From positions 1,440,001 through 1,472,000 of the forward strand of contig NZ_CP013011.1 of NCBI RefSeq assembly GCF_001412615.1: DNA of 32,000 bases, read 5' to 3'. The notes under the pieces were generated by a model that was given only the letters and a program-made list of their open reading frames with translations, was not told where the DNA came from and did not search any database. Both the position numbers and the translations under genes were made by a program. The stretch's first letter is position 1, and each line of letters begins with the position of its first letter. Source of the DNA: Pyrodictium delaneyi (GTDB lineage: Archaea > Thermoproteota > Thermoprotei_A > Sulfolobales > Pyrodictiaceae). This document shows, piece after piece, positions 2,766-25,373 of the stretch.

Positions 2766-4001
2766 GTGCCCGTGCTCACAAGCATGAGGGGCAATGAAGC
2801 TGTAGCATACGCGGCTAAGCTGGCCCGCGTAGAGGTTGTAGCAGCATATCCGATAACACCACAGACTATCGTCGTGGAGAAAATCGATGAACTGATAGCA
2901 AGCGGCGAAATGAATGCTGAGATGATACATGTAGAGAGCGAGCATAGCGCACTCGCAGCAGCCTATGGTGCTGCCGCCGGCGGAGTGAGAGCCTTCACGG
3001 CTACTAGCAGCCATGGACTCGCCTACATGTATGAGATGCTCTGGTGGACAGCTGCTAGCCGCATACCCCTAGTAATGGCGATAATTACGAGGGCTCTAGG
3101 CCCACCCTGGAATATCCACGTAGAGCATGCAGACCTAATGAGTACCCGTGATACAGGATGGCTAATAGCCATGGCTGAGAACAACCAGGAGGCACTAGAC
3201 CTGACACTAATGATGTTCCGTGTCACCGAGGACCCACGGGTCTACCTACCCGGCATAATCGGACTCGACGGCTTCATCCTCAGCCACACGGTGGAGCCGC
3301 TTGAGCTGCCCGACCAGGAAACTGTGGACGAGTTCCTGCCACCGCGCCGACAGCCCTACGTGATGGAGCCAGGCGAGCCTAAGGCAATGGGCAACCTGGT
3401 GCCAGACGAGTACTTCGAGGAACTCCGCATGGACATGCACCAGAGCCTTGCCAGGGCCCGCCAGGTCATTATGGAGGCTGGCCGCGAGTATGGTAGGCTC
3501 ACGGGCAGGAGCTACGAAAGCCTCGTAGAGTGCTACCGCTGCAACGACGCCGACATAGTGATAGCTGGCATGGGCTCCTGGATGGGCGACGCCAAGATCA
3601 CAGCCGACGTGCTCCGCGAGAAGGGACTACGCACTGGAGTCCTACGCTTACGCTGGGTGAGGCCCTTCCCCTGGGAGGAGATACGGGAAGCCGCCATGGG
3701 CAAGAAACTGTTGGTGGTGCTCGACCGTAGCGTCTCCTTCGGCCACGCTGGGCCACTCTTCCTAGAGATTAGCAGCGCCGTAGAGGCCAAGCCTAGCATG
3801 GTAGGCATCCTGGCTGGAGTCGGCGGAGTTGATATATCGTACGAGGACATAGCTAGGATGGTTGAGCACATCTACGAAATGGTTGAGGAGAGGGGCCGGG
3901 TCTACATACCGGCCTACTGGTACCACCTCGGCAAGTTCCACCCAATGCCCCCATACGAGTCCGTGTTTCTAGCGCCCGAACAAGCCCCTAAGGGTGAGTA
4001 A
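2766..4001 (+). CDS. 2-oxoacid:ferredoxin oxidoreductase, alpha subunit
   Basis: GNEAVAYAAKLARVEVVAAYPITPQT matches the N-terminus of POR/VOR alpha. The protein is 411 aa and the gene order is gamma-delta-alpha-beta. Confidence 0.9.
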   Translation: MPVLTSMRGNEAVAYAAKLARVEVVAAYPITPQTIVVEKIDELIASGEMNAEMIHVESEHSALAAAYGAAAGGVRAFTATSSHGLAYMYEMLWWTAASRIPLVMAIITRALGPPWNIHVEHADLMSTRDTGWLIAMAENNQEALDLTLMMFRVTEDPRVYLPGIIGLDGFILSHTVEPLELPDQETVDEFLPPRRQPYVMEPGEPKAMGNLVPDEYFEELRMDMHQSLARARQVIMEAGREYGRLTGRSYESLVECYRCNDADIVIAGMGSWMGDAKITADVLREKGLRTGVLRLRWVRPFPWEEIREAAMGKKLLVVLDRSVSFGHAGPLFLEISSAVEAKPSMVGILAGVGGVDISYEDIARMVEHIYEMVEERGRVYIPAYWYHLGKFHPMPPYESVFLAPEQAPKGE

Positions 4002-4003
4002 CC

Positions 4004-4924
4004 GTGGCCGTAAACATACGCAAGCTCCCGCGCAAGAAGTACGTGATGCCGGGTAACGCTGCCTGCCCCGGCTGCCCAGAGACCATGGGGTTCCGCTACG
4101 TAGGAATGGCACTCGGCGAGAAGGCAGTGATGGTGATACCCGCCGGCTGTAGCTCTGTGATCCAGGGACTGTGGCCCCGGCAGGGCTGGGGGCTCCCCGT
4201 ACTCAACATAGTGTTCGCTGCAGGTGCCGCTGCTGCCAGCGGGCTCGCCCGCGCCCTACGCCGCCGCGGCATAGACGCGCAGGTCGTGGTATGGGCTGGT
4301 GACGGCGGCACCGCAGATATAGGCCTCCAGGCTCTCAGCGCTGCTGCCGAACGCGGCGAGGACATCATATACATCTGTGTCGACAACGAGGCCTACATGA
4401 ACACGGGTATCCAGAGGAGCGGCCTCACACCTTACGGTGCCTGGACCACGACGACGCACCAGGGCAAGAAGGAGTTCAAGAAGCCACTCCCACAGATAGT
4501 TGCAGCCCACCGCATCCCCTACGTAGCTACTGCAAGCATCGGTTATCCCTGGGACTTCATAGCTAAGCTCCGCAAGGCGGCGAGTATACGGGGCTTCAAG
4601 TACATACACCTTCACGCGCCTTGCCCGGTAGGCTGGAGGTTCGACCCAGGCCTCACAGCGAAGATAGCACAGCTCGCCGTCGAGACCGGTATGTGGATAC
4701 TTTACGAGTACGAGAACGGAAAACTACGGTTAAACCCGCCGAGCAACCGGCTAATAGACCCCTCGAAGAGGAAGCCTATAGAGGAGTACATTAAGCTGCA
4801 GGGTAGGTTCCGGCACCTAAAACCAGAAGACATCGAGAGGCTACGCCAAGAGGTTGAAATGAACTGGCGCGAGATAACAGCGATGCTGAAGCTGCAGGAG
4901 CTGGAGGAGCGGTCAAAGACCTAG
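4004..4924 (+). CDS. 2-oxoacid:ferredoxin oxidoreductase, beta subunit (TPP-binding)
   Basis: N-terminal Cys motif CPGCPE, TPP-binding GDGGTADIG...CVDNEAYMNTG, and a GTG start 2 nt after the alpha stop. Confidence 0.9.
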   Translation: MAVNIRKLPRKKYVMPGNAACPGCPETMGFRYVGMALGEKAVMVIPAGCSSVIQGLWPRQGWGLPVLNIVFAAGAAAASGLARALRRRGIDAQVVVWAGDGGTADIGLQALSAAAERGEDIIYICVDNEAYMNTGIQRSGLTPYGAWTTTTHQGKKEFKKPLPQIVAAHRIPYVATASIGYPWDFIAKLRKAASIRGFKYIHLHAPCPVGWRFDPGLTAKIAQLAVETGMWILYEYENGKLRLNPPSNRLIDPSKRKPIEEYIKLQGRFRHLKPEDIERLRQEVEMNWREITAMLKLQELEERSKT

Positions 4925-4930
4925 CCTCTG

Positions 4931-4971
4931 CTTTACATCCTCACTATCTTGGATCTTTTGTAAGTACTTTC
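4931..4971. terminator. T-rich convergent intergenic region (possible oligo-T terminators)
   Basis: CTTTACATCC...GGATCTTTTGTAAGTACTTTCT lies between the convergent por operon and the ABC-2 permease. Archaeal termination uses oligo-T runs. Confidence 0.35.
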
Positions 4972-8636: not shown

Positions 8637-11600
8637 ATGCCGCCAGAGACTAGGCCACGTTGTGGGCCACCGCCTAGCCGTCTCCCGAGCCTGACTGGTA
8701 CTGACGCCCGGCTCCTTGACGAGTACCTGCCGCCGTTGCCTAGTAGGCAGAGGGTCTACCAGCAAGTCGCCGAAGCGCTCAACGAGATGGAGAAGAGCCA
8801 GGACCCGGTGCTAGTGCTCCTCGTGGCCGAGTGGGGCGAGGGGAAGACGAGCATCTACAATGCGCGGGTGAAGCCCTGGCTGGAGGAGAGGGGCTGGAGG
8901 AGCCTAGAAGCCCGCGCTGCCACGGTAATGGCTCATCTCGCCTCGCTGAGGAGCCGTAGCGAGCGCGACCCAGCGTACCGGCTTATGGCCGCGCTGCTCG
9001 CCGCCGGACTCGAGCAGGAGGGCATGCTGGCAGAGCACGGGGCTCCCGATGCTGCTGGGAGCCTCCGGGAATACGTGGATCGTGTCCTCCGCAGCCTCGT
9101 TCCCCGTGGTGGGAAGCTGATAGTCTTCATCGACGAGCTGGAGGACCTCGTGGCCTCGGCCCGGGAGGAGGAGCTAGCAGAGCTAGTCGCCGGGCTCGTT
9201 GGGATACTCAATGGGGACGTCGAGACCGTCTCTGCCCAGTGCCGTGGAGAGGGCTGCATGCCCGGCTCCTTCCATATAGTGGCTAGCCTCACGCCGCCGG
9301 CCTACAGCAGGCTCATGGGTCTCCGCGACTTCGCCACCGTGGCAGCGAGGCTGCGGAGGAGGATACGCAGCGTCTGGATACAGCCACTACCCCGCCGTGA
9401 GGCTTTCGCCTTCCTCGAGAGCCTCGCCCGCTACACGCTCGGCCGGGGGCTCGACGGGCTACTCGAAGACCATAGCCTCGCCCACGCCGTGGTCTCTGGC
9501 ACCCTGGGGAACATGGGGGCGCTCGTCTCGGCGTTCAGGTACCTCGTCTCCTGGGCCCGCGGCCGTGGAGGCTGCGGCGACGGCGTAGCAGTGCTCTCGA
9601 CTGGCGATCTACTCGAGGCATTGCAGGGACTCACTCTGAGCGTTGGGGGCGCCGAGCTGCCAGCCCTCAACAGCGAGGCCTACGCACGGCTAGCCGAGGG
9701 CTGGGGGGCGCGGGCCCGGCTAGCAGGCTTCGACACTGCCGCCGCCCGGAGGCTGCTAGACGAGCTAGTCGCGCGGGGCACTGTCCCTGTCGAGGAGCTG
9801 GCCGTAGCCATTGGGACCCGACTGAGCGTCGTGGCCGAGATGGTGCAAGAGCTCAACGTGTACGGTGAGCAGTCATGGCCGCGCCGGGAGCTAGGCGTAC
9901 AGAGGCTCGTCCATGAGGTCGTGGAGGCTCCAGCAGTCGAAGACGCGTTCAAGCTGCTAAGGGCCGTGGAGCCGGAGGCTGTTAAGCTCCTCCCCCAGCT
10001 GGCTGGAAGGGAGGAGCAGAAGCCGCTAGAGCAGCTACTCGACTCCCTCGTGTACCTCGACTCGGCTGGCCGGCTCGTAGTAGCGGTGCCCGCTGACGAG
10101 CGCATGGCAGCCGACCTAGTGGCGGACGCGTCGCCGCTAGAGCTGAGCCGCGCAGAGGCCGAGAGGCTCGCTGCGCTGCTGTGGGAGGGCATCTTCTCCA
10201 GGTTGCTGGGCTCCGGTGGTGCCCGGGCCTACATGCTCTCGCCGAGGCTCCAGCGTCTACTCTACGTGAGCCCCGAGCTGAGCTACCTAGACTTCATAGC
10301 TGACCGTGTCGAAAGGCTGCAAGTGATACGCCGCGTCTACACCGAGGCAGGCCGAGGCCACCTAGCAGTAGGTGTCTCAGCCCTCCTTGCTGCAGAGGGG
10401 CTGCTGGCAGAGCCGCCAGCACTGCAGGGCGAGGGCGTCGCACGCGCTGAGCTAGTCCTCCAGGGTGGTGCCCGGGCCAGAGTACTCGTCTATGCTGTGC
10501 CGGGCGAGGTAACCGCCGCGGAGGCCCGTAGACTAGAAAGCCAGGTCATGGCTGCACTCATGAGCGGGTGGCGGCCGCACGCGATACTACTAGTACACCA
10601 TGGCGGAGTGGAGCCGCAGGCAAGGCGGCTCCTAGACGCGCTGGAGGGCAAACTCTTCCTAAAGGTGGTAGAGGCCCCGATAGAGTCAATGGTGTCCCGT
10701 GCCCGGCTCCAGGCTCTGGGCGTCAAGCTCGCCGACGAGGCTGGCGGCGTAGAGGAGGCCCTCCGTGCCGCGGTCGAGGCGGCGAGGGACCCGGGGAGGG
10801 CCGAGGAGTTCGGCTTCGACCCGTTGAGGCTCCACTCGCTGCTACGGGAGCTGGCTGAGGAGATACGGCCCCGGGAGAGGCTGGAAAGAGCGCTAGAGGA
10901 GGGCATAGACGGCGCGCCACTAGTGGTGCGGGACCCCCGCCTAGGCTATGACGTGGAGAGGCCTACCGAGCTTAGCGGCGCACTCCGCTACTTCCTCGTA
11001 GTGCCTAGCACCCGTGCATCGGCTCGGGAAGCGCTCCACGCTGCCTACGAATACGTGATGCGGTATCATCTCTACCGGGGCCCCGGCGGCGAGGGCCGGG
11101 GCCTACTAAGCCCGGACATTGACCGCGGCGAGACACAGACCCTGGAGAAGTATATGCTTCTACTAGCCGCCAACGGGTTCCTCGAGAAGAGCAACGGCAC
11201 AGCGAGAATAGACACGTTGAGCCCTATGGAGCGTAGCGTGCTCCGGGCACTGGAGCAGCTCGGCGCCCGTAGCCAAGAGGTCCCCGCATCCAGGGTCTGG
11301 GAGCTGCTGGTAGTGGAAGCACGTAACCCGGGCACTCGGAGGATGCTGCTACAGGCGCTGGCCCACCGCGGCCTCGTGTCCGCTGCCGCCTCGCGGAGGA
11401 TAGACCCGGAGCGCTCCCGGCTAAGGCTACGTGACGGCGAGGAAGCCGCCTGGCAGCTAATACGCGAGGCCCGGGCCATTGTAGAGGAGATCGAGAACGA
11501 CCCCGAGGCAGCCTCCTGGGGCTATGTGGTCTCCGCTAAGGCCCGCGACTACCGCGCCGGCAGCCTAGAGGAGTTCACCCGGAAGATGTACAGCTTGCTA

Positions 11601-13067
11601 GACACAGCCGAGGAGGCCCTAAAGGCTGGCAATACACTGATGGCGCTGAGGCTTGCCCGCACAGTGCTAGACACCGCGGAGTACGTCAGGGACGAGGTCC
11701 TCCGGGGACACGTGAAGCCCGCCGCCGCCGAGGCCAGGAGGTTACGGAGCCTCCTAGAGGACTATGCGGAGAGGATAGAGGAAGCGCGCCGGGCAGCCGA
11801 AAGGATGCTCGAACAGCTGACCGGTAGCCGTGTACAGCTAGAGGTCGAGGGCTTTGAGAGGCTCCAGGAGGCCCTCCACGCGATAGAAGAGATCGAGGAG
11901 TTGCGGCTCAGCGAGAAGCAGCTAGAGGAGGAGGTGCAACAGCTCTGGGAGGAGGCCCGGCGCCGCCACCCCCGCGACCCAGGGCGCCACCTACCATTCT
12001 ACGTCGGTGGCACTGGCCCCGTGCTACACTTCAACTACAAGCTCTGGCTGCTGGCCAAGAGGCTTGAGGAGCTGGGGCTAGCACGGCTAGGCGAGTCTGG
12101 GCTCGAGGAGGGAGAGTGGCTACGCCGCACAATGCAGGCCCTGGAGACGCTGGTCAGCGAGGCCCGGAGGCTGCTAGAAGAGAGTGCTGAGCTACGCCGC
12201 CGCGCTGAGAGGCTAGCCGAGCGGCTGAGGAGGCTCGGCGTAGAGGCCCCCGCGCCGCAGAGCATCGTGCTGCAGGGGCTAAGCGCGCCCGAGAAGCTTG
12301 GCCTCGGCGAGGCCGAGCAGCTGCTCCAGGAGGCCCGGCGCCAGCTAGAGGAGGGGCGGCGCCCGCTACTGGAGCTCGAGGAGCAGGTGGACCGGCTCCT
12401 AGGCGAACTCGAGCAGCTGGAAGAGCTAGCCGCTGAGGCCGAGAGCTGGATACATGGGCTAGAAGAGGCGGCCGAGCGCGCCAGGGCAGCAGGGCTAGCT
12501 GCTAGCCAGAGGCTGCGCGAGGCCCTAGAGGACCTAGCACTGGCACTCGACCAGGCCCAGGCCATGAAGGGCAAGGCCCAGGCAGTGCTACAGCAGCCCG
12601 GCAGACTGCTAGACGCGCTCAGGGATGCCCGCAGCCTTGTCGAGAGCGCGCTCACCCTGCTACGCGACAGTCTAGAGAGGAGCAAGAGGATACACGCGGA
12701 CGCGGTAGCGGAGGCCGAGAGGCAGCGCCAGGCCCTAGAGGCCGAGGCCCAGGCGCTCCGCGAGGCGCTGGAGAGGACCGGGGCAAGGGCGCCACAGCCG
12801 CCACGCAGCAGCGACCCGTTCACCGCTATAGCTGGGCTCCACGAGTACATCGAGAAGCTGCGACGCATGGCGGCTGAGGCGGGGGTACTATCGCAGATGG
12901 AGATGGAGGCCTACCGGGTGGTGGCCCTTGAGCGTAGGAGGCGCGGCGAGCTGCTGCTACGAGAAGCAGCCGAGCTAGTAGCGGAGAGCCTCGGCATAGA
13001 CCTCGAGGAGGCTCGCCGTATACTCATAGCCCTCATCGAGAAGGAGATACTCGAGCCAAGGCTATAG
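8637..13067 (+). CDS. Very large P-loop NTPase (KAP/ORC-like AAA-type N-domain) with winged-helix-like segments and a long C-terminal coiled coil; function unknown
   Basis: Walker A VAEWGEGKTS (nt 8835-8852) and Walker B KLIVFIDELED (nt 9117-9146). An AAA-lid-like segment reads IRSVWIQPLPRREAFAFLESL. HTH-like segments include LLDELVARGTVPVEELAVAIG, SVLRALEQLGARSQEVPAS and the C-terminal LVAESLGIDLEEARRILIALIEK. Residues from about 950 to 1400 are E/R/L/A heptad-rich. Continuous codon-like coding runs over 4.4 kb. The true start could be downstream (in-frame TTG in PPLPS, or the ATG in NEMEKS). Confidence 0.8.
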   Translation: MPPETRPRCGPPPSRLPSLTGTDARLLDEYLPPLPSRQRVYQQVAEALNEMEKSQDPVLVLLVAEWGEGKTSIYNARVKPWLEERGWRSLEARAATVMAHLASLRSRSERDPAYRLMAALLAAGLEQEGMLAEHGAPDAAGSLREYVDRVLRSLVPRGGKLIVFIDELEDLVASAREEELAELVAGLVGILNGDVETVSAQCRGEGCMPGSFHIVASLTPPAYSRLMGLRDFATVAARLRRRIRSVWIQPLPRREAFAFLESLARYTLGRGLDGLLEDHSLAHAVVSGTLGNMGALVSAFRYLVSWARGRGGCGDGVAVLSTGDLLEALQGLTLSVGGAELPALNSEAYARLAEGWGARARLAGFDTAAARRLLDELVARGTVPVEELAVAIGTRLSVVAEMVQELNVYGEQSWPRRELGVQRLVHEVVEAPAVEDAFKLLRAVEPEAVKLLPQLAGREEQKPLEQLLDSLVYLDSAGRLVVAVPADERMAADLVADASPLELSRAEAERLAALLWEGIFSRLLGSGGARAYMLSPRLQRLLYVSPELSYLDFIADRVERLQVIRRVYTEAGRGHLAVGVSALLAAEGLLAEPPALQGEGVARAELVLQGGARARVLVYAVPGEVTAAEARRLESQVMAALMSGWRPHAILLVHHGGVEPQARRLLDALEGKLFLKVVEAPIESMVSRARLQALGVKLADEAGGVEEALRAAVEAARDPGRAEEFGFDPLRLHSLLRELAEEIRPRERLERALEEGIDGAPLVVRDPRLGYDVERPTELSGALRYFLVVPSTRASAREALHAAYEYVMRYHLYRGPGGEGRGLLSPDIDRGETQTLEKYMLLLAANGFLEKSNGTARIDTLSPMERSVLRALEQLGARSQEVPASRVWELLVVEARNPGTRRMLLQALAHRGLVSAAASRRIDPERSRLRLRDGEEAAWQLIREARAIVEEIENDPEAASWGYVVSAKARDYRAGSLEEFTRKMYSLLDTAEEALKAGNTLMALRLARTVLDTAEYVRDEVLRGHVKPAAAEARRLRSLLEDYAERIEEARRAAERMLEQLTGSRVQLEVEGFERLQEALHAIEEIEELRLSEKQLEEEVQQLWEEARRRHPRDPGRHLPFYVGGTGPVLHFNYKLWLLAKRLEELGLARLGESGLEEGEWLRRTMQALETLVSEARRLLEESAELRRRAERLAERLRRLGVEAPAPQSIVLQGLSAPEKLGLGEAEQLLQEARRQLEEGRRPLLELEEQVDRLLGELEQLEELAAEAESWIHGLEEAAERARAAGLAASQRLREALEDLALALDQAQAMKGKAQAVLQQPGRLLDALRDARSLVESALTLLRDSLERSKRIHADAVAEAERQRQALEAEAQALREALERTGARAPQPPRSSDPFTAIAGLHEYIEKLRRMAAEAGVLSQMEMEAYRVVALERRRRGELLLREAAELVAESLGIDLEEARRILIALIEKEILEPRL

Positions 13068-15099: not shown

Positions 15100-16719
15100 G
15101 TGCTCCTACACGGCTCAAAAACTGCAGCAATGCTAACTATAGCACTGATACTAGCCGCGTCATCAACTATGCTTGTAAAGCATTACACTACAGCAACCAT
15201 CTACGAGGATAGGTCTACTATTGTTACGGCAACTCGGCCTCTGATATCGAGAGGCCCACCGGTACTAACGATAGAGGTTAGCGACCAACAAGGAAGACCA
15301 GTAGACTTCTACGCTACGATAAGCATGCCTGCTGCCAACGGCAGTCTCATACACAGTAAGCCAGTGCGCGGTCATGGTCAAGCCACGATAGAGCTAACGA
15401 AGTACGCCGAGGAGCTATCAAGGCTGTTAGACTCGATAAACGCGGCAGGCAAACGGCTCCAAAAGATAGGGATACTAGTACTCCTAACCAGTGTAGAGAT
15501 AGAGAACGGCAAACCAGTAGTAGTCACCGATGCGTTTACCGTACCCATTAGCCTAGACGTGTTGAAGCCAGGCTACCATATAAAGGCAGTACACAAGTTC
15601 ACCCCCAAGGCCAAGACTGAGGCTAAGCAGGCGAAGCCACAGATACAGCTAGCAGCACCAAAACTAGACCTAGCCACGAGCCCCGTAGAGCCCACAGTCA
15701 ACGGACCATGCGTAGACTACGGCTTTAGCGTCACATGCTACTACTGGGAGCTAGACCAGATAGTATACCCTCCAAGCGGCGTAGACAACACCGTAAACAT
15801 GCCCTTCACAATAGTTGATGTAGCCCCAAGCAACGGCATCGACTCGCCAGCACAGAAGACAGAATCTGTGATAGTAAGTAACGTTATACGACTCCAGCTA
15901 TACACTATAGAAGAAGTAGAGATAGGGCTAGTAGTGGACTTCACACTGCTAGGCGGGTCTGTCACGATACCAGGACCAGCATTCGTAGACAGTATAAGAA
16001 ACTATGATACCTCCATCAAGACACTCCTAGACGTACAGTGTACATTCCTGAATACCCTCAACAGCCTGCCTGGGTCAAAGTGCACGCTGAATGGTATCGA
16101 TGCAGCTATCCCCGACTACTATTATGCAGCATACCTGGCTACTGGTGCTGAGGGTAGGCTATGGGTAGCAAAATATAACCTTATAGCTGAGACCTGCGAC
16201 CTGGACGGCATTTGCTACACTGAGAGTATTGGTAGCAACTATGCAGCATACTTTATACCCATCTACAATATCTTCGGGTACTTCGAACCCTACGTGGAGG
16301 TACAGGACGATTACTACAACTATGGTGGCTACCTCTACCGTGTGCTCGACGACTTAAGAAGCAAAATGGAAACAGCCACTATACTGAGCGGATACTATAA
16401 CGATAGACAATTCAACTACTATAGTGTAATCGTTGACGTGAATGGAGAGACGTACATGTCGGTATCTCTCCCCGTAGGCTCCGTAGCGGCTATAGTCTCG
16501 GGACTCAACCTGCCAATGGCTGCTACAACACTCAGCTTTACAGTAACATCTAGCGTGTACTACATTACCGCGTATGAAAGCCTATCGACTGTAACTATAG
16601 ATATAGATACGTCGGTATACCCAGGTATGCAGTATAGCAGTGAAGTCCTGAAGACCGATATGATGGTTGTACCAGATAACGGCGTCTTCACAATCCCGTT
16701 GATGGCCTTAAGACCGTGA
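15100..16719 (+). CDS. Secreted or membrane-anchored hypothetical protein (orphan, Tyr/Asn/Thr-rich)
   Basis: N-terminal hydrophobic anchor AAMLTIALILAASSTMLV. Three closely spaced Cys pairs (CVDYGFSVTC, CTFLNTLNSLPGSKC, CDLDGIC) suggest extracellular disulfides. GC is lower than the flanks. I recognise no family. Confidence 0.65.
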   Translation: MLLHGSKTAAMLTIALILAASSTMLVKHYTTATIYEDRSTIVTATRPLISRGPPVLTIEVSDQQGRPVDFYATISMPAANGSLIHSKPVRGHGQATIELTKYAEELSRLLDSINAAGKRLQKIGILVLLTSVEIENGKPVVVTDAFTVPISLDVLKPGYHIKAVHKFTPKAKTEAKQAKPQIQLAAPKLDLATSPVEPTVNGPCVDYGFSVTCYYWELDQIVYPPSGVDNTVNMPFTIVDVAPSNGIDSPAQKTESVIVSNVIRLQLYTIEEVEIGLVVDFTLLGGSVTIPGPAFVDSIRNYDTSIKTLLDVQCTFLNTLNSLPGSKCTLNGIDAAIPDYYYAAYLATGAEGRLWVAKYNLIAETCDLDGICYTESIGSNYAAYFIPIYNIFGYFEPYVEVQDDYYNYGGYLYRVLDDLRSKMETATILSGYYNDRQFNYYSVIVDVNGETYMSVSLPVGSVAAIVSGLNLPMAATTLSFTVTSSVYYITAYESLSTVTIDIDTSVYPGMQYSSEVLKTDMMVVPDNGVFTIPLMALRP

Positions 16720-16948
16720 CAAGAATAACTTGCTTACACAAAGACATGGCCATCGATGGTACCTAGAACGTAGATGCATACTCTCTTTTTCGCAGCTGTA
16801 TTCCCCGTAAGCCGTTTTGCTTGATGGATAGCTGCCGCGCAGTGAAAGACCGGGCTTATGGCTAGCTAGCCCTATTATCCTGTGCCCATGTTGGAGGACT
16901 GACAAGGATTAATAATATTTAGGCTAATGTGTTAAGCCATTAGTGTGA

Positions 16949-17560
16949 ATGCCTACATGCTCTGAGAGATGTGGCCCCAAGCACCAGCTTAGCGGAGGGT
17001 TGGGTACGATCTTGTCTAGTAGAGTTGTCCTAGTACCGTTCCACCTGGCCAGGCTTGGTAAGAGGATAGTGGGCCTAGACGCGTTCTTCTGGCCAAGCCT
17101 AGAGAAGAGGTACCGGGTAGTTCTCCTAGTACACCCTGCTGAGAGGCTAGGAGAAGCTGCCATAGAAGGCTGTCAACTCCCTGCACAAGTGGATATAGGA
17201 AGTCAAATCGGCGAGATACGGGAAATCGCGCAACGTAAGCCAGAGGGACCTCGGGCACCACGTGCTACTATGCGGCGGAGGTTTGCCTGGTTCCTGTTGC
17301 CACTCAACATGCTCCGCGATATGCTGCGCAGCGAAGCCGAGGAGTTCCAGTTATCGGAGGAGCTGCAAGCTGTGGGCCTTGCCAAGATTCTTAGAGAGTT
17401 GGAGCCTCTCGGGGAGACCCGTTACGCAGTCTTCGAGCCAGTGGAGGAGGATGGCGAGAAGCTGCTCTTACCCGTTGACGATCATATGAGGAGGATATAT
17501 CGGGAGCTAGCACGCCGCGACCAGGGCTATAGAAGGGCAGCAAGCCAGGCAGGATGCTAG
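16949..17560 (+). CDS. Hypothetical protein; only the C-terminal ~97 aa (from ATG 17270) look protein-like
   Basis: MRRRFAWFLLPLNMLRDMLRSEAEEFQLSEELQAVGLAKILRELEPLGETRYAVFEPVEEDGEKLL has ordinary composition. The upstream 107 codons are doubtful. No family recognised. Confidence 0.35.
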   Translation: MPTCSERCGPKHQLSGGLGTILSSRVVLVPFHLARLGKRIVGLDAFFWPSLEKRYRVVLLVHPAERLGEAAIEGCQLPAQVDIGSQIGEIREIAQRKPEGPRAPRATMRRRFAWFLLPLNMLRDMLRSEAEEFQLSEELQAVGLAKILRELEPLGETRYAVFEPVEEDGEKLLLPVDDHMRRIYRELARRDQGYRRAASQAGC

Positions 17561-17580
17561 ACGCATTAGCTTAGGGAGAA

Positions 17581-17685
17581 AGGCGGGTCGGCCAGCAGCC
17601 CCTAGTCGTCATGCCCTGGGGCCCGCAGCCCCCGGGGACCGGCTGCGGAGCCCCTCTGCTTTGCTACATCTCCCCATACCCGCCT
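17581..17685 (+). ncRNA. Candidate structured RNA element or 3' structure (extended GC-rich hairpin, ~105 nt)
   Basis: Nested helices: AGGCGGGT 17581-88 pairs with ACCCGCCT 17678-85; AGCAG 17594-98 pairs with CTGCT 17656-60; GGGGCCCGCAGCC 17618-30 pairs with GGCTGCGG-A-GCCCC 17641-54. It forms a GC-rich patch inside an AT-rich island. Confidence 0.3.
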
Positions 17686-17832
17686 GCCACGGCTAGCACG
17701 TAGTGTGTTGCCGAGGCTATATCTTCTATGCCCGACTGATGGCACCAAACCATTAGGACTCTATTATTGATGGCCTTCTCCTGCGTGCTAACGACGGTCA
17801 CAGCTAATAGTTCTAAGCCTTGAGTAGGCTTC

Positions 17833-17840
17833 CTAAATAT
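17833..17840 (+). promoter_or_regulatory. Candidate TATA box (CTAAATAT) for the GH114-like gene
   Basis: It lies 39 nt upstream of GTG 17879 and 66 nt upstream of ATG 17906. Confidence 0.4.
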
Positions 17841-17878
17841 GCCGCTATCCTTGCCGCACTACCCCTCTGGGTGCTATA

Positions 17879-19028
17879 GTGCGCTATGTTAAAAGACTTA
17901 GAGGCATGAGCGATTTCGCCGTATTCCTCGCCTTGTTAGTGTTGCTCATACTCCTCATCATCCTTGCTTCCCGGGCTAGCCTGCCCTACACCCCTTCTAT
18001 GACTGCCACAGTTACTGTCACCAACACCGCAACATTTGATGAATCTGTAACTAGTACAAGAGCCAATCTGCAGGAGAAAGCTACAACAAAGACGCTAACA
18101 TTTTACAGAGACGCGGACAATGACAGAGACTGTAACAGCTACCGTTACAGTGACAGCCACTATAACGGCTACAAAGATTGCTGCTACTGCCTCCTCCTGG
18201 TGCAGTATCGCTTGCTACTACCTGACAAATATCGAGTCGGAGCCTTTACTGGCCAGGCACTGGACTGTAGCAGTGATAGAGCCAGATGAAGCAAATGACA
18301 CACTGCTAATGGAGGTGAGGAAACGCAGCGACCTGGTTCTCGCCTACCTAAACGCCGGGTATGCCGAGGAGTGGAGGAGCTACTGGGACGTAGTCAAAGA
18401 TAAGCCCTGGATCCACGGCACCACCATGTACGAGGGCGAATACTATGTGGAATATTGGCACACTGAGTGGAGGAAGATACTTGTAGAGTTAGCAACGAGA
18501 TACCTGGCTAGGGGGTTTCAGGGCATCTATCTAGACAACATCGATGCAGCCGAGCTGCTTGCTATAGAGAGACCCTCTTGGGCTCAGGGAGTAGATCCAC
18601 GAGAAGCCATGATAGATCTCGTCTGTAACGTGTCCAATGCCGTCAAAGCCGTAGACCCTAAGGCAAAGGTGTACCTCAATATCGGTGGTGCAGTGAACCT
18701 GCTGTACAATGACCGCCTCCTAGGCTGCATAGATGGGGTGCTACGAGAGGAGCTGTGGAGCCACCCAGGCCCAAGCGGACCCGAGCCACAGGACCCTTGG
18801 GAAACTCTCGCAGCGCTCGACGCGCTAGCCTATGCACACAGCCACGGGAAGACCGTGCTAGTGGCGGATCCCGTGAACGACTTAAAGGAGGCTTGGAGTT
18901 TCTGTGTAAAGGCCTGGAGCCATGGCTTTATTCCAGTTCCGCAGCCAGCCTGGGCTCTTGACTACAGCGCTCCACCTCCACCAGTTTGGTGCAGTTGCAG
19001 CACCTCAATGGTCAAAAGCAACAAGTGA
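17879..19028 (+). pseudogene. Frameshifted gene: signal anchor plus Thr/Val-rich stalk (frame A) joined to a GH114/TM1410-like glycoside-hydrolase TIM-barrel domain (frame B, +1)
   Basis: Frame A (17879..18289) encodes FAVFLALLVLLILLIILA plus TATVTVTNTAT, then degenerates into C/Y/D/R-rich nonsense. Frame B is open from 18099 and continues the stalk (TETVTATVTVTATITATK) into the catalytic domain. The only place to switch is the TTTT run at 18101-18104. Confidence 0.7.
18120..19028 (+). CDS. GH114-like (endo-alpha-1,4-polygalactosaminidase / TM1410-like) hydrolase domain ORF
   Basis: VLAYLNAGYAEEWRSYW, YYVEYWHTEWRKIL and ARGFQGIYLDNIDAAE match my recollection of the GH114 family core (..YlsiGeae.yR.YW.. 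/ ..GfDGvyLDnvD..). There is no signal peptide and no SD before ATG 18120. Confidence 0.7.
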   Translation: MTETVTATVTVTATITATKIAATASSWCSIACYYLTNIESEPLLARHWTVAVIEPDEANDTLLMEVRKRSDLVLAYLNAGYAEEWRSYWDVVKDKPWIHGTTMYEGEYYVEYWHTEWRKILVELATRYLARGFQGIYLDNIDAAELLAIERPSWAQGVDPREAMIDLVCNVSNAVKAVDPKAKVYLNIGGAVNLLYNDRLLGCIDGVLREELWSHPGPSGPEPQDPWETLAALDALAYAHSHGKTVLVADPVNDLKEAWSFCVKAWSHGFIPVPQPAWALDYSAPPPPVWCSCSTSMVKSNK

Positions 19029-19301: not shown

Positions 19302-20438
19302 ATGTGGACTAGCAGGGTAATAGCCATAGCTATAGTTGCTTTCATCGCTATCATAGCTGCCTATATGCTTACAAGCGGAGGGGGAGAACCAGCCTCTACC
19401 GCAACACCTATGACCACCACTATCACAGTCACCAAAACCGCTACGACTACTATGACCACTACCGCGGTCGAGACCACTACAGTGTCAAAGACGGTGACAT
19501 TCACCCAGACTGTGACCCAGACAATACCACAGGTAGAAGAGAAGCTAGTCCTAGTCGATGCGCTAGGCAGAACAGTCGCTGTCGAAAAACCCGCTGAGCG
19601 TGTCGTCGCTCTAGCGCCCTCGATAACCGAGGATATTTGCTCTCTTGGGCTCTGCAGCCGGCTGGTAGGCGTCGACAGCTTCTCCAGGGATGTGCCCGGC
19701 GTCCCCGAGGGCGTCGTGGATGTTGGCGGCTACTGGCAGCCTAGCAGCGAGAAGGTAGCCGAGCTAAAGCCGGACCTAGTACTGGCATGTAGCGGTGTAT
19801 CCGCCCAGGAGCAGATGGCACAGCAGCTCGAGGGGCTCGGTATCCGAGTATTCTTCCTTCGCTGCGACCAGGCCCGGGGCTTCGACGACATCTACTGGGA
19901 TCTACGTGCTATAGCGACACTACTGGGCAAGCCCGAGGCTGCCGATAAGGTGATAGAGCTGATGGAAGAGAGGGTTAGCGCGCTAGAGAAGAAGCTAGCC
20001 AATACTACGAGACCTGGTGTAGCCCTGCTAGTTTACCTCCAGGAGAACGGCGCCTGGGTAGCCGGCGGCGGCACATTCCACGACACAGTGATAGCTGTTG
20101 CTGGCGGCTCTAACGTGTTTCACGGTCTCTACGGCTGGCAGATGGTTGGCTACGAGGAGCTAGTATCCCGGGACCCCGACTACATAATAGTGACCGGTAT
20201 GACTCCTGCTGACTTCAACCGCACGATAGCGCTCGCGGAGAAGACGCCACTACGGGAGACTAAGGCCTTCCAGGAGGGCCATGTATGTGTCCTCTACGGC
20301 GCCGCCACCGACGCGCTTAACAGACCATCACCAGGCGTAGTAGACGCCGCCTATCTGTTGGCCTCGATACTGCACCCCGACCTAGTGGAGCCGCCGGAGA
20401 GGCTAGCCGGCAACTATACTTGTATGCACCAGGGCTAG
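19302..20438 (+). CDS. ABC transporter substrate-binding protein (BtuF/FepB-like, iron-siderophore/cobalamin class), membrane-anchored with a Thr-rich stalk
   Basis: TM anchor VIAIAIVAFIAIIAAYML and stalk TTTITVTKTATTTMTTTAVETTTVSKTVTFTQTVTQT. The binding domain reads RVVALAPSITEDICSLGL...VGVDS...LKPDLVLA. Confidence 0.85.
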   Translation: MWTSRVIAIAIVAFIAIIAAYMLTSGGGEPASTATPMTTTITVTKTATTTMTTTAVETTTVSKTVTFTQTVTQTIPQVEEKLVLVDALGRTVAVEKPAERVVALAPSITEDICSLGLCSRLVGVDSFSRDVPGVPEGVVDVGGYWQPSSEKVAELKPDLVLACSGVSAQEQMAQQLEGLGIRVFFLRCDQARGFDDIYWDLRAIATLLGKPEAADKVIELMEERVSALEKKLANTTRPGVALLVYLQENGAWVAGGGTFHDTVIAVAGGSNVFHGLYGWQMVGYEELVSRDPDYIIVTGMTPADFNRTIALAEKTPLRETKAFQEGHVCVLYGAATDALNRPSPGVVDAAYLLASILHPDLVEPPERLAGNYTCMHQG

Positions 20439-20463: not shown

Positions 20464-21441
20464 TTGCACACGCGGCGTGTTTTTGCAGCACTAGTCGCCT
20501 TGGCGGCACTGCTCTTCCTAGCAGGTCTAGCCGTGGGCCCGGCCGGGTTCCGTAACCCCCTGGACCCTGGGTCCTGGGACCTGGTGCTCAGGCTCCGGCT
20601 GCTCCGGGGTCTTCTCGCTCTAGGCGTGGGAGCGGCGCTGGGGGCGGCCGGGGCCTTCATGCAGTATAGCGTCTCGAACCCATTGGCGAGCCCGAGCATC
20701 CTAGGAGTCTCGCCAGGCGCGCTCGCCGCCAGCGTCCTAGTAATGCTCGCGTGGAGGGGCTCGCCACCGCTCGGAGCCCCTCTCCTTGCCGGGATGCTGG
20801 GAGGCTTCGCTGCCTACGCCGCCTCGGCCGCCCTAGCCGCCCGGCTCGGGTTCACAAGGGTAGGCCTAGTCCTAGCAGGCGTAGCTGTCTCCAGCACACT
20901 CTCCGGCCTCTCGAGCCTTCTCGTTCTCCTGGCTGAGGCGAGGCTCCGTCTACCCGCCTCATTGATGCTTCTCGGCAGCTTCGCCTACGCAACCCCCGAG
21001 ACCGTCTACGTCGCTCTAGCCTCATCTGGTGCCGGCCTAGTCGCGGGACTCGCCCTAGCCCGAGGACTCGACGCAATATCCTACGGAGACGAGACAGCAT
21101 CCGCTATGGGATATAGCCCGGGGCAGATCCGGCTCGCTGCGAGCCTCACCTCAGCCGCCCTGACCTCTGTTTGTGTCTACGCCGCCGGGATAGTGGGGTT
21201 TGTCGGCCTCGTAGCCCCTAACACCGCGCGTCTCCTTGTAGGCGGCCATCCTAGGGCTAGTTTGCCCGCCTCCCTACTCCTCGGCGCAGCCACCACGCTG
21301 GCTGCAGACCTGGCCGGGAGACTCACAGCGCTAGCTCTAGGGCTTGGTGAAGTACCGGCTGGGCTCGTTACAAGCGCCGTGGGGGGTCTGTTCCTGGCCT
21401 ACATGCTCCTTCGGGGAGCCGCTGGGGGAGAAGAACAGTGA
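20464..21441 (+). CDS. FecCD/BtuC-family ABC permease
   Basis: A 325-aa polytopic protein rich in A/L/G, with typical FecCD length and position. It overlaps the ATPase gene by 4 nt. Confidence 0.85.
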   Translation: MHTRRVFAALVALAALLFLAGLAVGPAGFRNPLDPGSWDLVLRLRLLRGLLALGVGAALGAAGAFMQYSVSNPLASPSILGVSPGALAASVLVMLAWRGSPPLGAPLLAGMLGGFAAYAASAALAARLGFTRVGLVLAGVAVSSTLSGLSSLLVLLAEARLRLPASLMLLGSFAYATPETVYVALASSGAGLVAGLALARGLDAISYGDETASAMGYSPGQIRLAASLTSAALTSVCVYAAGIVGFVGLVAPNTARLLVGGHPRASLPASLLLGAATTLAADLAGRLTALALGLGEVPAGLVTSAVGGLFLAYMLLRGAAGGEEQ

Positions 21442-22220
21442 CAGCAGAACTGAAGGCTCTAGGGGTATACGCTAGGCATGGTAGCAAGGTCGTACTGGAA
21501 GACGTCACCATGGAGGCACGGCCCGGCGCAGTCACAGTAGTCCTTGGACCCAACGGTGCGGGGAAGACCACACTCCTCAGAGTGCTTGCTGGCCTCCACG
21601 TCCCGGCCCAGGGCCGTGTCTTCATCGGGAACCGGGACGTCTACAAGCTACCCCGCATGGAGAGAGCCAGGCTTATCGCCTACGTTCCGGCTGTGCTTGA
21701 ATCCCCAGGGCTCGGCCAGACCGTGGAGGAGTTTGTCGCTGCTAGCCGGTACCCGCTCCACCCTGGGCCCCGCCTAGGCCCCCAGCCAGGTGACCTGGAG
21801 GAGGCGCAGAGGCAGCTCCGCCGAGTAGAGGCGGAGAAACTAGCCCAGCAGAGCCTCGGAAAGCTGAGTAGTGGCGAGAAACAACGTACACTCCTAGCCC
21901 ATGCATTAGCCCGTGACGCTGATGTACTGCTCGTAGACGAGCCTACTAGTTTCCTCGACCTGAGGGGCCGGCTGCTCGTCTACAAACTGCTCCACGAGGA
22001 GGCCCGCCGGGGCCGCGTCGTGGTAGCGGCGACCCACGACATGATGCTTGCAGGGCTCTATGCTGACCAGGTGGTTCTCCTTTCCCAGGGCCGGATAGTA
22101 GCCCAGGGACCTCCCAAGGATATACTCCACCCCCGGCTTCTAGAAAGAGTGTTCCAAGTCAAGGTTGAAATGACTAGACTCGGTGACAAGCACATACCGG
22201 TACCTGTAGACATTACATGA
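21438..22220 (+). CDS. ABC transporter ATP-binding protein (FepC/BtuD-like)
   Basis: Walker A GPNGAGKTT, signature LSSGEKQR, Walker B VLLVDEPTSFLD and H-loop ATHDM. Confidence 0.9.
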   Translation: MTAELKALGVYARHGSKVVLEDVTMEARPGAVTVVLGPNGAGKTTLLRVLAGLHVPAQGRVFIGNRDVYKLPRMERARLIAYVPAVLESPGLGQTVEEFVAASRYPLHPGPRLGPQPGDLEEAQRQLRRVEAEKLAQQSLGKLSSGEKQRTLLAHALARDADVLLVDEPTSFLDLRGRLLVYKLLHEEARRGRVVVAATHDMMLAGLYADQVVLLSQGRIVAQGPPKDILHPRLLERVFQVKVEMTRLGDKHIPVPVDIT

Positions 22221-24137: not shown

Positions 24138-24273
24138 GGTGGCGCCCGCTCCCCTCGGGGGCATGAAGACCGGGCTACCAGCCCGCAGGGCCAGAGGCCG
24201 CTTCTCTGGCTCGGCCTCTGGGATGCGGAGGAAACCTCGGGGGCGACCCCCGGGGGCCAGTGCGGGCGCCGCC
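24138..24273 (+). ncRNA. Candidate structured RNA (cis-regulatory leader of queD-queE, or an independent sRNA): closing helix plus four hairpins
   Basis: P1 pairs GGTGGCGCCCGC 24138-49 with GCGGGCGCCGCC 24262-73 (12 bp, one G-U). H1 is 24150-61 (4 bp, CUCG loop). H2 is CGGGC-UACCA-GCCCG at 24171-85. H3 pairs CCAGAGGCCG with CGGCCTCTGG at 24191-24221 (10 perfect bp, 11-nt loop). H4 is 24235-55 (9 bp, one G-U). All G-U pairs become A-C mismatches on the other strand. Confidence 0.45.
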
Positions 24274-24352
24274 TTTATCAACAGTAGAGGCCGCCACTGA
24301 CGCCTTGGCAGAGAAGGAACATCGAGCGCATGCTGCGGGGTGCCACCATAAG

Positions 24353-24709
24353 TTGCCGTTCCGCGTGAAGGCATGCACTATGTTCTCTGCTGCACACCGT
24401 ATCGAGGGACATCCACGCTGTGGAAGGATCCACGGACACAACTACCGTGTATGCATAGTACTCCGCGAGGACAAGCCCATGGGGATAGACCTGGACGAGC
24501 TCGAAGAGTGGCTCCAGGAACACGTCTTCAAGAGGTTCGACCACCAGTACCTCAACAAGCTACTAGCCGAGGACGGAGAGCTACCAACAGTGACCAGCGA
24601 GGACCTCGCCCAGATGATAGCTAGTTGGCTTGAGAAGAGCTACCCGGGGATGGTCGAGCTTGTCGAAGTCTGCGAGACCCCCCAGCTCTGTGTCGAGTAC
24701 ATCCCCTAG
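24353..24709 (+). CDS. queD: 6-carboxy-5,6,7,8-tetrahydropterin synthase (QueD / PTPS family)
   Basis: FSAAHRIEGHPRCGRIHGHNY carries the Cys and His-x-His Zn/catalytic motif. The track ORF starts at 24260, but the conserved fold begins at FRVKACTMFSAAH. An in-frame TTG at 24353 is preceded by the SD-like GGGGTG at 24337-42 and gives a typical ~118-aa QueD. Confidence 0.85.
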   Translation: MPFRVKACTMFSAAHRIEGHPRCGRIHGHNYRVCIVLREDKPMGIDLDELEEWLQEHVFKRFDHQYLNKLLAEDGELPTVTSEDLAQMIASWLEKSYPGMVELVEVCETPQLCVEYIP

Positions 24710-25373
24710 GCTCCGCGTAGTAGAGATCTTCACTAGCCTGCAGGGCGAGGGCCCATTTACGGGTACCCGCAGCGTCTTCGTCCGCCTCGCGGGCTGTGAT
24801 CTACGCTGCCCGTTCTGCGACACCACATACAGCCTAGACCCCCGAACCGGGAAGCCCATAGCCATCGAGGAGATAGCCATTATCGTCGAGAGGGCGCGTC
24901 CTAGCCTGGTCGTAATTACTGGGGGTGAGCCTCTGCTACAGAGGAGAGGGGTCAACGAGCTAGCCAGGCTCCTAACCGAACAGGGGTATAGGATGCAGCT
25001 CGAGACTAATGGCACATTACCCGCACCTAGACCAGGAGAACCCCTCTATGCTGTACACCACGTGGTCTCACCGAAGGATGTACCAGTAGCTGTTGAGGGT
25101 GCGAGGCTCCACCCTTCCTGGGTAGAGGCTTCCCGGGCTACGGGTAGGGTTTGGTTCAAGTTCCTAGCCTCTACGAGGGAGCACGTAGAGGCCATAGCGG
25201 TATACGTGAAGGAGAAAGGTATACCCCGGGACCATGTCTACATTATGCCACTGACAAGGGATGGGATGTCCATGGATGAGCTACTCAAGCTCCACCAGCA
25301 GGTGGCGAAACTGGCACTAGACTATGGGTTCAACTTCAGTCCCCGACTTCACCTCCTTCTCGGACTACGCTAG
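24690..25373 (+). CDS. queE: 7-carboxy-7-deazaguanine synthase (QueE, radical SAM)
   Basis: VEIFTSLQGEGPFTGTRSVFVRLAGCDLRCPFCDT is the QueE N-terminal signature, followed by ITGGEPL. The track ORF begins at 24630. An in-frame GTG at 24690 (overlapping the queD end by 20 nt) is the more plausible start. Confidence 0.85.
   Translation: MSSTSPRLRVVEIFTSLQGEGPFTGTRSVFVRLAGCDLRCPFCDTTYSLDPRTGKPIAIEEIAIIVERARPSLVVITGGEPLLQRRGVNELARLLTEQGYRMQLETNGTLPAPRPGEPLYAVHHVVSPKDVPVAVEGARLHPSWVEASRATGRVWFKFLASTREHVEAIAVYVKEKGIPRDHVYIMPLTRDGMSMDELLKLHQQVAKLALDYGFNFSPRLHLLLGLR

Follow-up and report, generated by a model that had tools for sequence, protein, structure and literature searches.

A predicted surface glycosidase gene of Pyrodictium delaneyi is spread over two reading frames that meet at a TTTT run

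The closest described relatives of the enzyme considered here belong to glycoside hydrolase family GH191. TmGH191 and Env-GH191 are endo-alpha-1,4-galactosaminidases, and the putative catalytic pair of TmGH191 consists of Asp156 (nucleophile) and Glu225 (acid/base); TM1410 carries an N-terminal signal peptide, and its own activity could not be measured (PMC12054363).

In the stretch of P. delaneyi DNA analyzed here (contig NZ_CP013011.1; 32,000 nucleotides, referred to below as the window), a gene for a predicted glycosidase of this kind occupies two reading frames. GenBank and RefSeq annotate only positions 18120-19028, as a 302-residue ‘endo alpha-1,4 polygalactosaminidase’ (Pyrde_1459 / WP_055409530.1), and this deposited product begins exactly at the first ATG past the upstream stop codon of its frame. 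The original prediction, made from the letters of the window, had read the region as one surface glycosidase gene, split by a +1 shift at a TTTT run within a Thr-rich stalk. Our analysis bears this out: the orthologues are single ORFs, and one polypeptide of P. abyssi spans both frames.

Two reading frames and their junction

The predicted arrangement of frames A and B is present in the sequence (Table 1). Frame A runs from GTG 17879 or ATG 17906 to a TGA at 18287-89. Its 5′ part encodes a basic N-terminal region, a hydrophobic anchor (hydropathy maximum 3.79; Kyte-Doolittle, 15-residue window) and the first half of a Thr/Val-rich stalk, the last residues of which are ...KTLTF. The product reads MRYVKRLRGMSDFAVFLALLVLLILLIILASRAS...TATVTVTNTAT...KATTKTLTF and then YRDADNDRDCNSYRY..., and the tail encoded by 18104-18289 is homologous to nothing that we found. 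GTG 17879 is probably the start codon, rather than ATG 17906, because the N-terminus of the P. abyssi RefSeq protein, MHYARRPGGMSNY, aligns with VRYVKRLRGMSDF. Frame B, which is +1 relative to frame A, is open from 18099 (HFTETRTMTETVTATVTVTATITATK...) to a TGA at 19026-28.

Table 1. Features of the glycosidase locus and its neighbours, numbered by position in the window
Feature	Position	Strand	Basis
5′ gene part, frame A	17879..18103	+	P. abyssi residues 1-70 align
Predicted signal anchor / signal-peptide core, hydrophobic, FAVFLALLVLLILLIILA	17915..17968	+	Kyte-Doolittle; equivalent in 24/24 full-length homologues
Frame-B stop TAA, upstream limit of possible junction	18096..18098	+	Sequence
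TTTT run, most probable extra-nucleotide site (T3 to T4)	18101..18104	+	Paralogue stalk and P. abyssi
Out-of-frame tail of frame A (YRDADNDRDCNSYRY...RAR, TGA 18287-89)	18104..18289	+	Reading frame
3′ gene part, frame B: second stalk half (TETRTMTETVTATVTVTATITATK), then catalytic domain	18105..19028	+	P. abyssi residues 75-233 align
TIM-barrel glycosidase domain (Pfam Glyco_hydro_114), closest to TM1410 / CAZy GH191	18261..18938	+	Pfam, profile vs PDB, AF2 model, Foldseek
GAC, Asp139 of ORF B, aligned to putative nucleophile Asp156 of TmGH191	18534..18536	+	HMMER alignment
GAG, Glu210 of ORF B, aligned to putative acid/base Glu225 of TmGH191	18747..18749	+	HMMER alignment; nearly invariant column
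Peripla_BP_2 substrate-binding protein, intact anchor-stalk-domain	19302..20438	+	Pfam; stalk about 19401-19530 paralogous to glycosidase stalk
FecCD permease, after binding protein	20464-21441		
ABC ATPase, after FecCD permease	21438-22220		

Anchor and barrel lie in one ORF in all 24 full-length homologues and in the P. abyssi orthologue. In P. delaneyi, unlike in the full-length archaeal homologues, frame A supplies the anchor and frame B the barrel, and the N-terminus of ORF B alone reaches a Kyte-Doolittle value of 1.13, versus at least 1.92 in the homologues. Whether relatives carry a single ORF had been proposed as a check on the prediction, and the answer is yes, with P. abyssi reading straight through. 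Residues 1-70 of its protein are 55% identical to frame A at 17879-18091, and residues 75-233 are 65% identical to frame B at 18117-18590. Between these blocks, the P. abyssi segment QEKTAARAPGVTETRT is equal in length to the fused QEKATTKTLTF-TETRT, and the protein stays in frame across the junction (...APGVTETRT...), with Val in place of Phe. As for orthologous DNA of P. abyssi, P. occultum and P. delaneyi strain Hulk, a scan of genome contigs gave 23 loci, none of them from a named Pyrodictium species. Exact-product look-ups (P0001, P0010 and the neighbouring binding protein) returned no matching record, and no deposited protein corresponded to ORF A in any of the five start variants tried.

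The gene that follows, for a substrate-binding protein, had been singled out as an intact example of the same architecture, and an anchor, a stalk and a domain are indeed seen there in one frame. The stalk match of 17/20 nt between the two genes also holds up (0 expected in 100 shuffles), and it widens to 78% over 37 nt. A second stalk block, ungapped and matching at 14 of 16 nt (18087-18102 versus 19486-19501; AAGACG..ACATT), supports frame A through ACA-TT, to 18102. At the protein level, the binding-protein stalk KTVTF-TQTVTQT corresponds to KTLTF-TETRTMT in the fused glycosidase.

By these alignments, the junction is within the T run at 18101-18104, with the extra base at its end, because P. 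abyssi TETRT fits frame B from 18105 and the paralogue keeps frame A through 18102. The original prediction held that the frames could be joined only within 18099-18107. A site in the T run agrees with this, but frames A and B are both open over 18096-18287, where removal of almost any one base produces a single ORF; mechanically the frames can be joined throughout that interval, and it is homology that narrows the junction. The same run provides the sole slippery-site candidate (UUU to UUU). The candidate shift-site context is ACAUUUUACAGAG, and the trans-frame peptide that it implies is ...ATTKTLTFTETR.

Elsewhere in the window, the overlapping ORFs 24260-24709 and 24630-25373, the only pair tested with Pfam for signs of homopolymer error, are two distinct genes (PTPS-family QueD-like and radical-SAM QueE-like) rather than a second broken one. 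Rfam and tRNA scans of the window gave no non-coding RNAs.

The catalytic domain and its family

Frame B matches PF03537 (Glyco_hydro_114) with E = 4.7e-14 over profile positions 17-221 of 231, and its 52.6 bits exceed the curated gathering score of 27 by which Pfam defines membership. Matches of our family profile (A1) in the PDB were TM1410 (E = 2.6e-37), Env-GH191 (2.2e-26), PelA (2e-7) and Ega3 (8e-7). The AF2 model of ORF B has a mean pLDDT of 94.3 and a pTM of 0.88, and the top Foldseek matches of this predicted structure are 2AAM, 9EUX, 9EUZ and 9EP5 (TM-score 0.71-0.81, probability 1.00). On the basis of sequence profiles and the predicted fold, the barrel is nearer to TM1410/GH191, a sister of GH114, than to GH114 proper. 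Ega3 (GH114) and the hydrolase domain of PelA (GH166) have the PF03537 family and fold in common with it, but the match is much weaker (profile E about 1e-6 to 1e-7, TM-score 0.59-0.66). Because of this difference, the earlier label ‘GH114-like’ is right at the superfamily level only, that of Pfam PF03537; the closest defined family is GH191.

TM1410, TmGH191 and Env-GH191 (PDB 2AAM, 9EUX, 9EUZ, 9EP5) are the best matches by both sequence and structure, with TM-scores of 0.71-0.78 to TM1410/GH191; the modified (beta/alpha)8 barrel is common to both sides, and the Asp/Glu pair aligns. The P. delaneyi protein, a predicted glycosidase by sequence, differs from them in belonging to an archaeal clade at ~24% identity (23-25% in the structure matches) that has its own conserved motifs, ACYYL and PQPAW..DY..PP..WC. 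Further differences are the Thr-rich stalk of Pyrodictium and, in P. delaneyi, the placement of the signal in another reading frame. Of the family positions, all 20 invariant ones and 28 nearly invariant ones are retained in ORF B, as are both putative catalytic residues, and the column of Asp139 is invariant (alignments A1 and A3).

Two features of the models and alignments were set aside. AF2 places a helix at ORF B residues 2-26, within the Thr-rich stalk, which is probably an artefact of aligning to the transmembrane helices of the homologues. Conserved N- and C-terminal cysteines occur in the protein family; we do not take them as a sign of extracellular location, because intracellular disulfides also occur in hyperthermophilic crenarchaea.

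Explanations for the change of frame

The explanation that we favour, and consider likely, is a young, lineage-specific 1-nt insertion in one ancestral gene, by which the gene was most likely inactivated and became a pseudogene. An insertion in a T homopolymer leading to a recent pseudogene was among the explanations originally offered, and both the single-ORF homologues and the two accessions described below favour it. The ancestral gene would have encoded an exported, membrane-anchored or secreted TIM-barrel glycosidase of GH191/GH114 type, in which a signal anchor was joined through a Thr-rich stalk to the catalytic domain. In the lineage of P. delaneyi, the T run within the stalk would have grown by one T (TTT to TTTT), for which replication slippage is the simplest mechanism; a deletion of 2 or 5 nt would have been equivalent, but we infer the insertion. 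Initiation at GTG 17879 or ATG 17906 would now give the anchor and half of the stalk, followed by 62 nonsense codons and the stop at 18289, and the frame-B catalytic domain would be separated from its export signal. Only two routes to that domain would be left: initiation at the internal ATG 18120, which would give a product lacking the signal and presumably mislocalised, or rare spontaneous +1 slippage. Loss of the signal would be expected to abolish function. The lesion appears to be young, because ORF B keeps all conserved positions and the catalytic residues and gives a model with pLDDT 94.3; no further decay is seen at the conserved family positions. One caveat here is that a catalytic domain free of decay would fit just as well if the gene still functioned, by way of a start at 18120 or of frameshifting.

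That the lesion is real is suggested by deposited records. The identical 302-residue ORF B stands under two GenBank accessions, ALL01502.1, attributed to strain Su06, and OWJ54591.1, attributed to strain Hulk, whose genome is a de novo assembly of Illumina MiSeq reads (380x). From the identical proteins and the attribution of OWJ54591.1 to Hulk, we infer a real mutation common to both sequenced strains. Homologues intact across the lesion are observed directly; reproducibility of the lesion in independent sequencing would follow from the two accessions and the Hulk assembly. A sequencing or assembly error in the homopolymer, with TTT in the true genome and one intact ORF of 382 codons, was part of the original prediction. 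The lesion does lie within a homopolymer, the domain is wholly undegraded, and the platform used for the Su06 genome could not be established. Such an error is nonetheless very unlikely, because the same ORF is found under both accessions, taken as Su06 and Hulk. Moreover, Illumina reads are not prone to error at a run as short as T4, and no intact version (373/382 residues) occurs among 5.8 billion protein clusters. Run length also bears on a phase-variable contingency locus, switched ON and OFF by the number of Ts, which had likewise been suggested. A frameshift in a homopolymer of a surface-enzyme gene is what this would look like, and in P. abyssi, too, the orthologue seems to be frameshifted, at a different place and probably in a C run; its protein ends in ...HPPGPRG, where a −1 frameshift is predicted, with CC-TGG-GCC-CAG-GGG-GTA-GA (WAQGVD) as the predicted reading. 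However, the run has only four nucleotides, where contingency tracts typically have 7-8 or more, both deposited records hold the same ORF B and are in the same OFF state, and metagenome scans with the fused protein and with junction DNA carrying 0-3 extra bases gave no hits and hence no variant. We give phase variation next to no likelihood. Transcriptional slippage was rejected because T4 is far shorter than the tracts at which it is known.

The remaining explanations assume that the catalytic domain is still used. A functional split gene, in which ORF B is translated alone from ATG 18120 and works without an anchor (e.g. in the cytoplasm) and ORF A is a by-product, seems unlikely to us. It would account for an ORF B that is fully intact in its conserved positions, both putative catalytic residues and its model (pLDDT 94.3). 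ATG 18120 is the first start past the frame-B stop, and the A/T-rich AACATTTTAC, about 20-27 nt upstream of it, is a putative weak TATA-like element. On the other hand, every full-length homologue, and TM1410 too, is exported or anchored, and the first 20 residues of the product would be orphan Thr-rich stalk. A GGAGG-like Shine-Dalgarno (SD) motif is lacking ahead of 18120, as had been noted originally; the next gene carries GAGGAGG 10 nt before its start codon ATG. In favour of the split gene, an SD is not always required in crenarchaea. A P. delaneyi proteomics supplement tabulates about 940 Pyrde_ entries, and Pyrde_1459 is not among them. This absence counts weakly against the split gene and weakly for the pseudogene, a single proteome saying little about a surface protein.

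Programmed +1 frameshifting, in which tRNA-Phe would move from UUU (18101-03) to UUU (18102-04) and yield a regulated, full-length anchored enzyme, has only a slight chance of being correct. Perfect re-pairing is possible at the shift site, UUU is rare (15% of Phe codons in the 6306 codons of the window that we counted), and a −1 frameshift reportedly operates in the fucA1 glycosidase gene of Sulfolobus solfataricus, a precedent among archaea. But the codon in the 0-frame A site is not a stop; it is UAC, the preferred Tyr codon in the same count (78%; 26.6 per 1000). The downstream RNA (18105-18204) folds no better than shuffled sequences (z = −0.61, with 50 of 200 folding at least as well), no GGAGG-like motif occurs upstream in 18080-18100, and the orthologues do not share the site, P. 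abyssi being in frame and the 24 full-length homologues plain single ORFs. The lesion is apparently kept in two strains with the downstream domain intact, but this shared presence carries no weight, because Su06 and Hulk are 99.77% identical, too alike to gauge relaxed selection. Three of the four testable features of the programmed shift put forward in the original prediction (slow A-site codon, stimulator, site conservation) therefore fail, and re-pairing alone stands.

Significance and comparison with known systems

The main value of the recent-insertion reading is a correction of annotation: Pyrde_1459 / WP_055409530.1 would not be a complete protein but the 3′ piece of a frameshifted gene whose anchored product had about 382 residues. 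Pyrodictiaceae and relatives possess a small clade of exported archaeal glycosidases similar to TM1410/GH191, and the gene belongs to it. This clade may be decaying in cultured Pyrodictium species, and it is of possible interest for work on the Pyrodictium extracellular matrix. A programmed frameshift would bear on archaeal recoding, although the present evidence speaks against one. It is highly improbable that the T4 site supports a low-level, biologically used +1 shift that supplies small, possibly condition-dependent amounts of a full-length anchored GH191-like enzyme. We know of no earlier case of +1 recoding in a crenarchaeal gene; were the shift genuine, it would be the first, and the gene the second recoded archaeal glycosidase after fucA1.

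The likeness to bacterial prfB (+1) and to fucA1 (−1) is that the slippery codon re-pairs in the new frame, and fucA1, too, is an archaeal glycosidase gene. In contrast to both, the site here has neither a stop nor a rare codon in the A site, has no stimulatory element and is absent in a sister species. The locus resembles more closely the ordinary frameshift pseudogenes and split genes that are annotated short, with a 1-base indel in a short homopolymer, intact orthologues, no recoding signals and a downstream ORF whose annotated start is simply the first ATG that the frame offers. It differs from these in that the lesion falls in a linker, so that both halves remain recognisable modules, and in that the catalytic part is still pristine; otherwise, nothing about it is unusual for that class.

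One gene in two reading frames

The annotated 302-aa protein Pyrde_1459 (WP_055409530.1), matched at 100% in the window, is the second part of a two-frame structure, which the sequence and a Pfam match confirm as the original prediction had it (table). The upstream frame (frame A) has a basic N-terminus, a hydrophobic core (Kyte-Doolittle 15-residue maximum 3.79) and a Thr/Val-rich stretch ending in ...KATTKTLTF. Past KTLTF follow 62 Cys/Tyr/Asp/Arg-rich codons, a tail without homologue, and then a stop. The +1 frame (ORF B) scores 52.6 bits with Pfam Glyco_hydro_114 (cut-off 27; E = 4.7e-14).

Features of the window, in coordinates counted from its start
Feature	Position	Strand	Remarks
Frame A start	GTG 17879; ATG 17906	+	basic N-terminus follows
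Hydrophobic core, frame A	17915-17968	+	18 residues, FAVFLALLVLLILLIILA
Frame A stop	TGA 18287-89	+
Frame B stop	TAA 18096-98	+	one base further than frame A
Frame B, open	18099-19028	+	begins HFTETRTMTETVTATVTVTATITATK...
Adjacent binding protein	19302-20438	+	Peripla_BP_2; intact anchor, stalk and domain
1476-aa ORF	8637-13067	+	most GC-rich part of window (64-68% GC); no Pfam match
539-aa ORF	15100-16719	+	47-49% GC, about 60% elsewhere; no Pfam match
Overlapping unsupported ORFs only	16720-17880		about 1.1 kb; no Rfam or tRNA match
ORF within this stretch	16949-17560		no Pfam match
PTPS-family (QueD-like) ORF	24260-24709	+
Radical-SAM (QueE-like) ORF	24630-25373	+	80-nt overlap with the QueD-like ORF, different frame

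A search with the two frames conceptually fused, run against 5.8 billion protein clusters, found 26 relatives. The single ORF looked for in orthologues is present in 24 of 24 full-length relatives (about 36-58% identity), each joining an anchor-like N-terminal hydrophobic segment to the barrel; their Kyte-Doolittle maxima are 1.92-3.79, compared to 1.13 for ORF B alone. In the nearest relative, the P. abyssi orthologue PABY_14260 (224 aa; 233 aa in RefSeq), anchor, Thr-rich stalk and barrel share one frame. By tblastn, its residues 1-70 map to the frame of 17879-18091 and residues 75-233 to the frame of 18117-18590, and the junction is of equal length in the two species (QEKTAARAPGVTETRT in P. 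abyssi, QEKATTKTLTF/TETRT in the fused P. delaneyi protein). These data argue that the two frames are parts of one gene. Its true start is probably GTG 17879, since the RefSeq N-terminus from P. abyssi, MHYARRPGGMSNY, aligns with VRYVKRLRGMSDF.

Position and nature of the frameshift

The two frames had been thought joinable only within 18099-18107. Stop codons alone do not impose this limit, as both frames stay open from 18096 to 18287, where removal of nearly any single base yields one ORF, but homology does narrow the junction to the T run at 18101-18104. Frame A is backed up to ACA-TT by the neighbouring binding-protein stalk, which matches it without gaps at 14/16 nt (18087-18102 versus 19486-19501) and in which KTVTF-TQTVTQT corresponds to KTLTF-TETRTMT of the fused glycosidase; frame B is correct from ACA 18105 onward, TETRT being common to P. 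abyssi. The extra base would therefore sit where the T run ends, although loss of 2 or 5 nt there would give the same frame relation.

A sequencing error in the homopolymer is very unlikely. The 302-aa product of ORF B has three database entries (ALL01502.1, OWJ54591.1 and WP_055409530.1) and is present on two contigs; OWJ54591.1 is attributed to strain Hulk (NCQP01), which was sequenced independently (Illumina MiSeq, 380x) and assembled de novo. No intact 373/382-aa version occurs in the protein database, and the same internal ATG would hardly have been chosen by a gene caller if the 382-codon ORF were intact. We infer from these records that the lesion is present in strains Su06 and Hulk alike and is neither a homopolymer sequencing error nor a laboratory mutation. 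Among the explanations originally offered, the 1-nt insertion in a T homopolymer is favoured. Public records mis-annotate ORF B of this frameshifted gene as a complete protein.

Biologically used +1 recoding at the T run has only a slim chance of being correct. Re-pairing of tRNA-Phe from UUU to UUU is possible, as proposed, but little else fits a programmed shift. The next 0-frame codon, UAC, is no stop; it is the codon most used for Tyr, with a share of 78% and a frequency of 26.6 per 1000 (6306 codons of the window counted). The 100 nt downstream fold like shuffled controls or worse (z = -0.61), and no SD-like motif was found just upstream of the run. Nor is the site conserved: in P. abyssi the reading frame runs on through it, with Val in place of Phe, and the other homologues are plain ORFs. 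The presence of the lesion in both P. delaneyi strains carries little weight, since their identity is 99.77%. Phase variation by T-run length, also suggested originally, is the least credible reading, given a tract of only four bases and the same state in both deposited records.

The P. abyssi orthologue seems, from its protein sequence, to have a frameshift of its own, of opposite sign and within the barrel, probably in a stretch of Cs. Its C-terminal end, ...AEKHPPGPRG*, is the counterpart of window ~18570-18600; one base back, PPGPRG* (CCn CCT GGG CCC AGG GGG TAG) becomes TGG GCC CAG GGG GTA G.., or WAQGV, matching P. delaneyi PSWAQGVD. RefSeq names the 233-aa fragment as an enzyme. This shift could be a second independent inactivation, or the P. 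abyssi assembly may have an error in the homopolymer. It hints that cultured Pyrodictium can do without the gene and, as a separate shift, argues further against a conserved recoding site.

Surroundings of the gene

The stalks of the glycosidase and the binding protein are 78% identical in DNA over 37 nt (17997-18033 versus 19408-19444, encoding PSMTATVTVTNTAT and TPMTTTITVTKTAT, respectively), and the 14/16-nt match encodes KTLTF versus KTVTF. This suggests that an anchor-stalk module has been shared or exchanged between neighbouring surface-protein genes. The glycosidase gene sits at the edge of a compositionally atypical low-GC region, perhaps an acquired island, and the 1476-aa ORF may encode a large surface protein. 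The next-closest full-length homologue (57% identity; 4001-4948 of locus L024 on JBPKUZ010000007.1, GCA_054042505.1) is an intact single ORF with an anchor. It lies amid MazE/PIN toxin-antitoxin pairs with no adjoining ABC transporter, so the gene neighbourhood is not conserved. Elsewhere, the QueD-like and QueE-like ORFs were considered as one frameshifted gene and rejected, as they belong to different Pfam families; their overlap is probably long because the TTG start of the second ORF was called too far upstream.

The enzyme and its export

The barrel had been called GH114-like. The Pfam match bears this out, but the nearest profiles and structures are those of TM1410/GH191, a family separated from GH114 in 2025 (PMC12054363). 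With the family profile, TM1410 scores E = 2.6e-37 and Env-GH191 2.2e-26, with PelA (GH166) and Ega3 (GH114) far weaker (about 1e-7 to 1e-6). In structure, the closest fits to an AlphaFold2 model of ORF B (mean pLDDT 94.3) are those of TM1410/GH191 (TM-score 0.71-0.78), followed by PelA and, after it, Ega3. The putative catalytic pair of TmGH191, Asp156/Glu225 (PMC12054363), aligns with ORF B Asp139 (18534-36; invariant YLDNIDA motif) and Glu210 (18747-49; nearly invariant LREE motif). ORF B retains every one of the 20 invariant and 28 nearly invariant family positions; the catalytic half is therefore undegraded, and either the lesion is young or this half is still used.

We consider independent translation of a still useful ORF B unlikely. 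The product of ATG 18120 would lack the signal and carry an orphan piece of stalk, and no recognisable SD precedes this ATG, as originally noted, whereas GAGGAGG stands 10 nt ahead of the next gene's ATG. Most likely, slippage lengthened the run from T3 to T4, a mutation that became fixed before Su06 and Hulk parted and that split the export signal from the enzyme: the natural start would yield a 136-residue anchored stub, and the barrel could be obtained only from ATG 18120 or by rare spontaneous slippage. Pyrde_1459 is not among the roughly 940 Pyrde_ entries tabulated in a proteomics supplement on P. delaneyi, which is consistent with inactivation but weak evidence. TM1410 is exported, as is every full-length relative, presumably to act on extracellular polysaccharide, whereas in P. 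delaneyi the export signal lies in frame A; on this basis the glycosidase gene is probably functionally inactivated. The lesion is real but ordinary, a frameshift in a short homopolymer, and as such a kind of feature already known.
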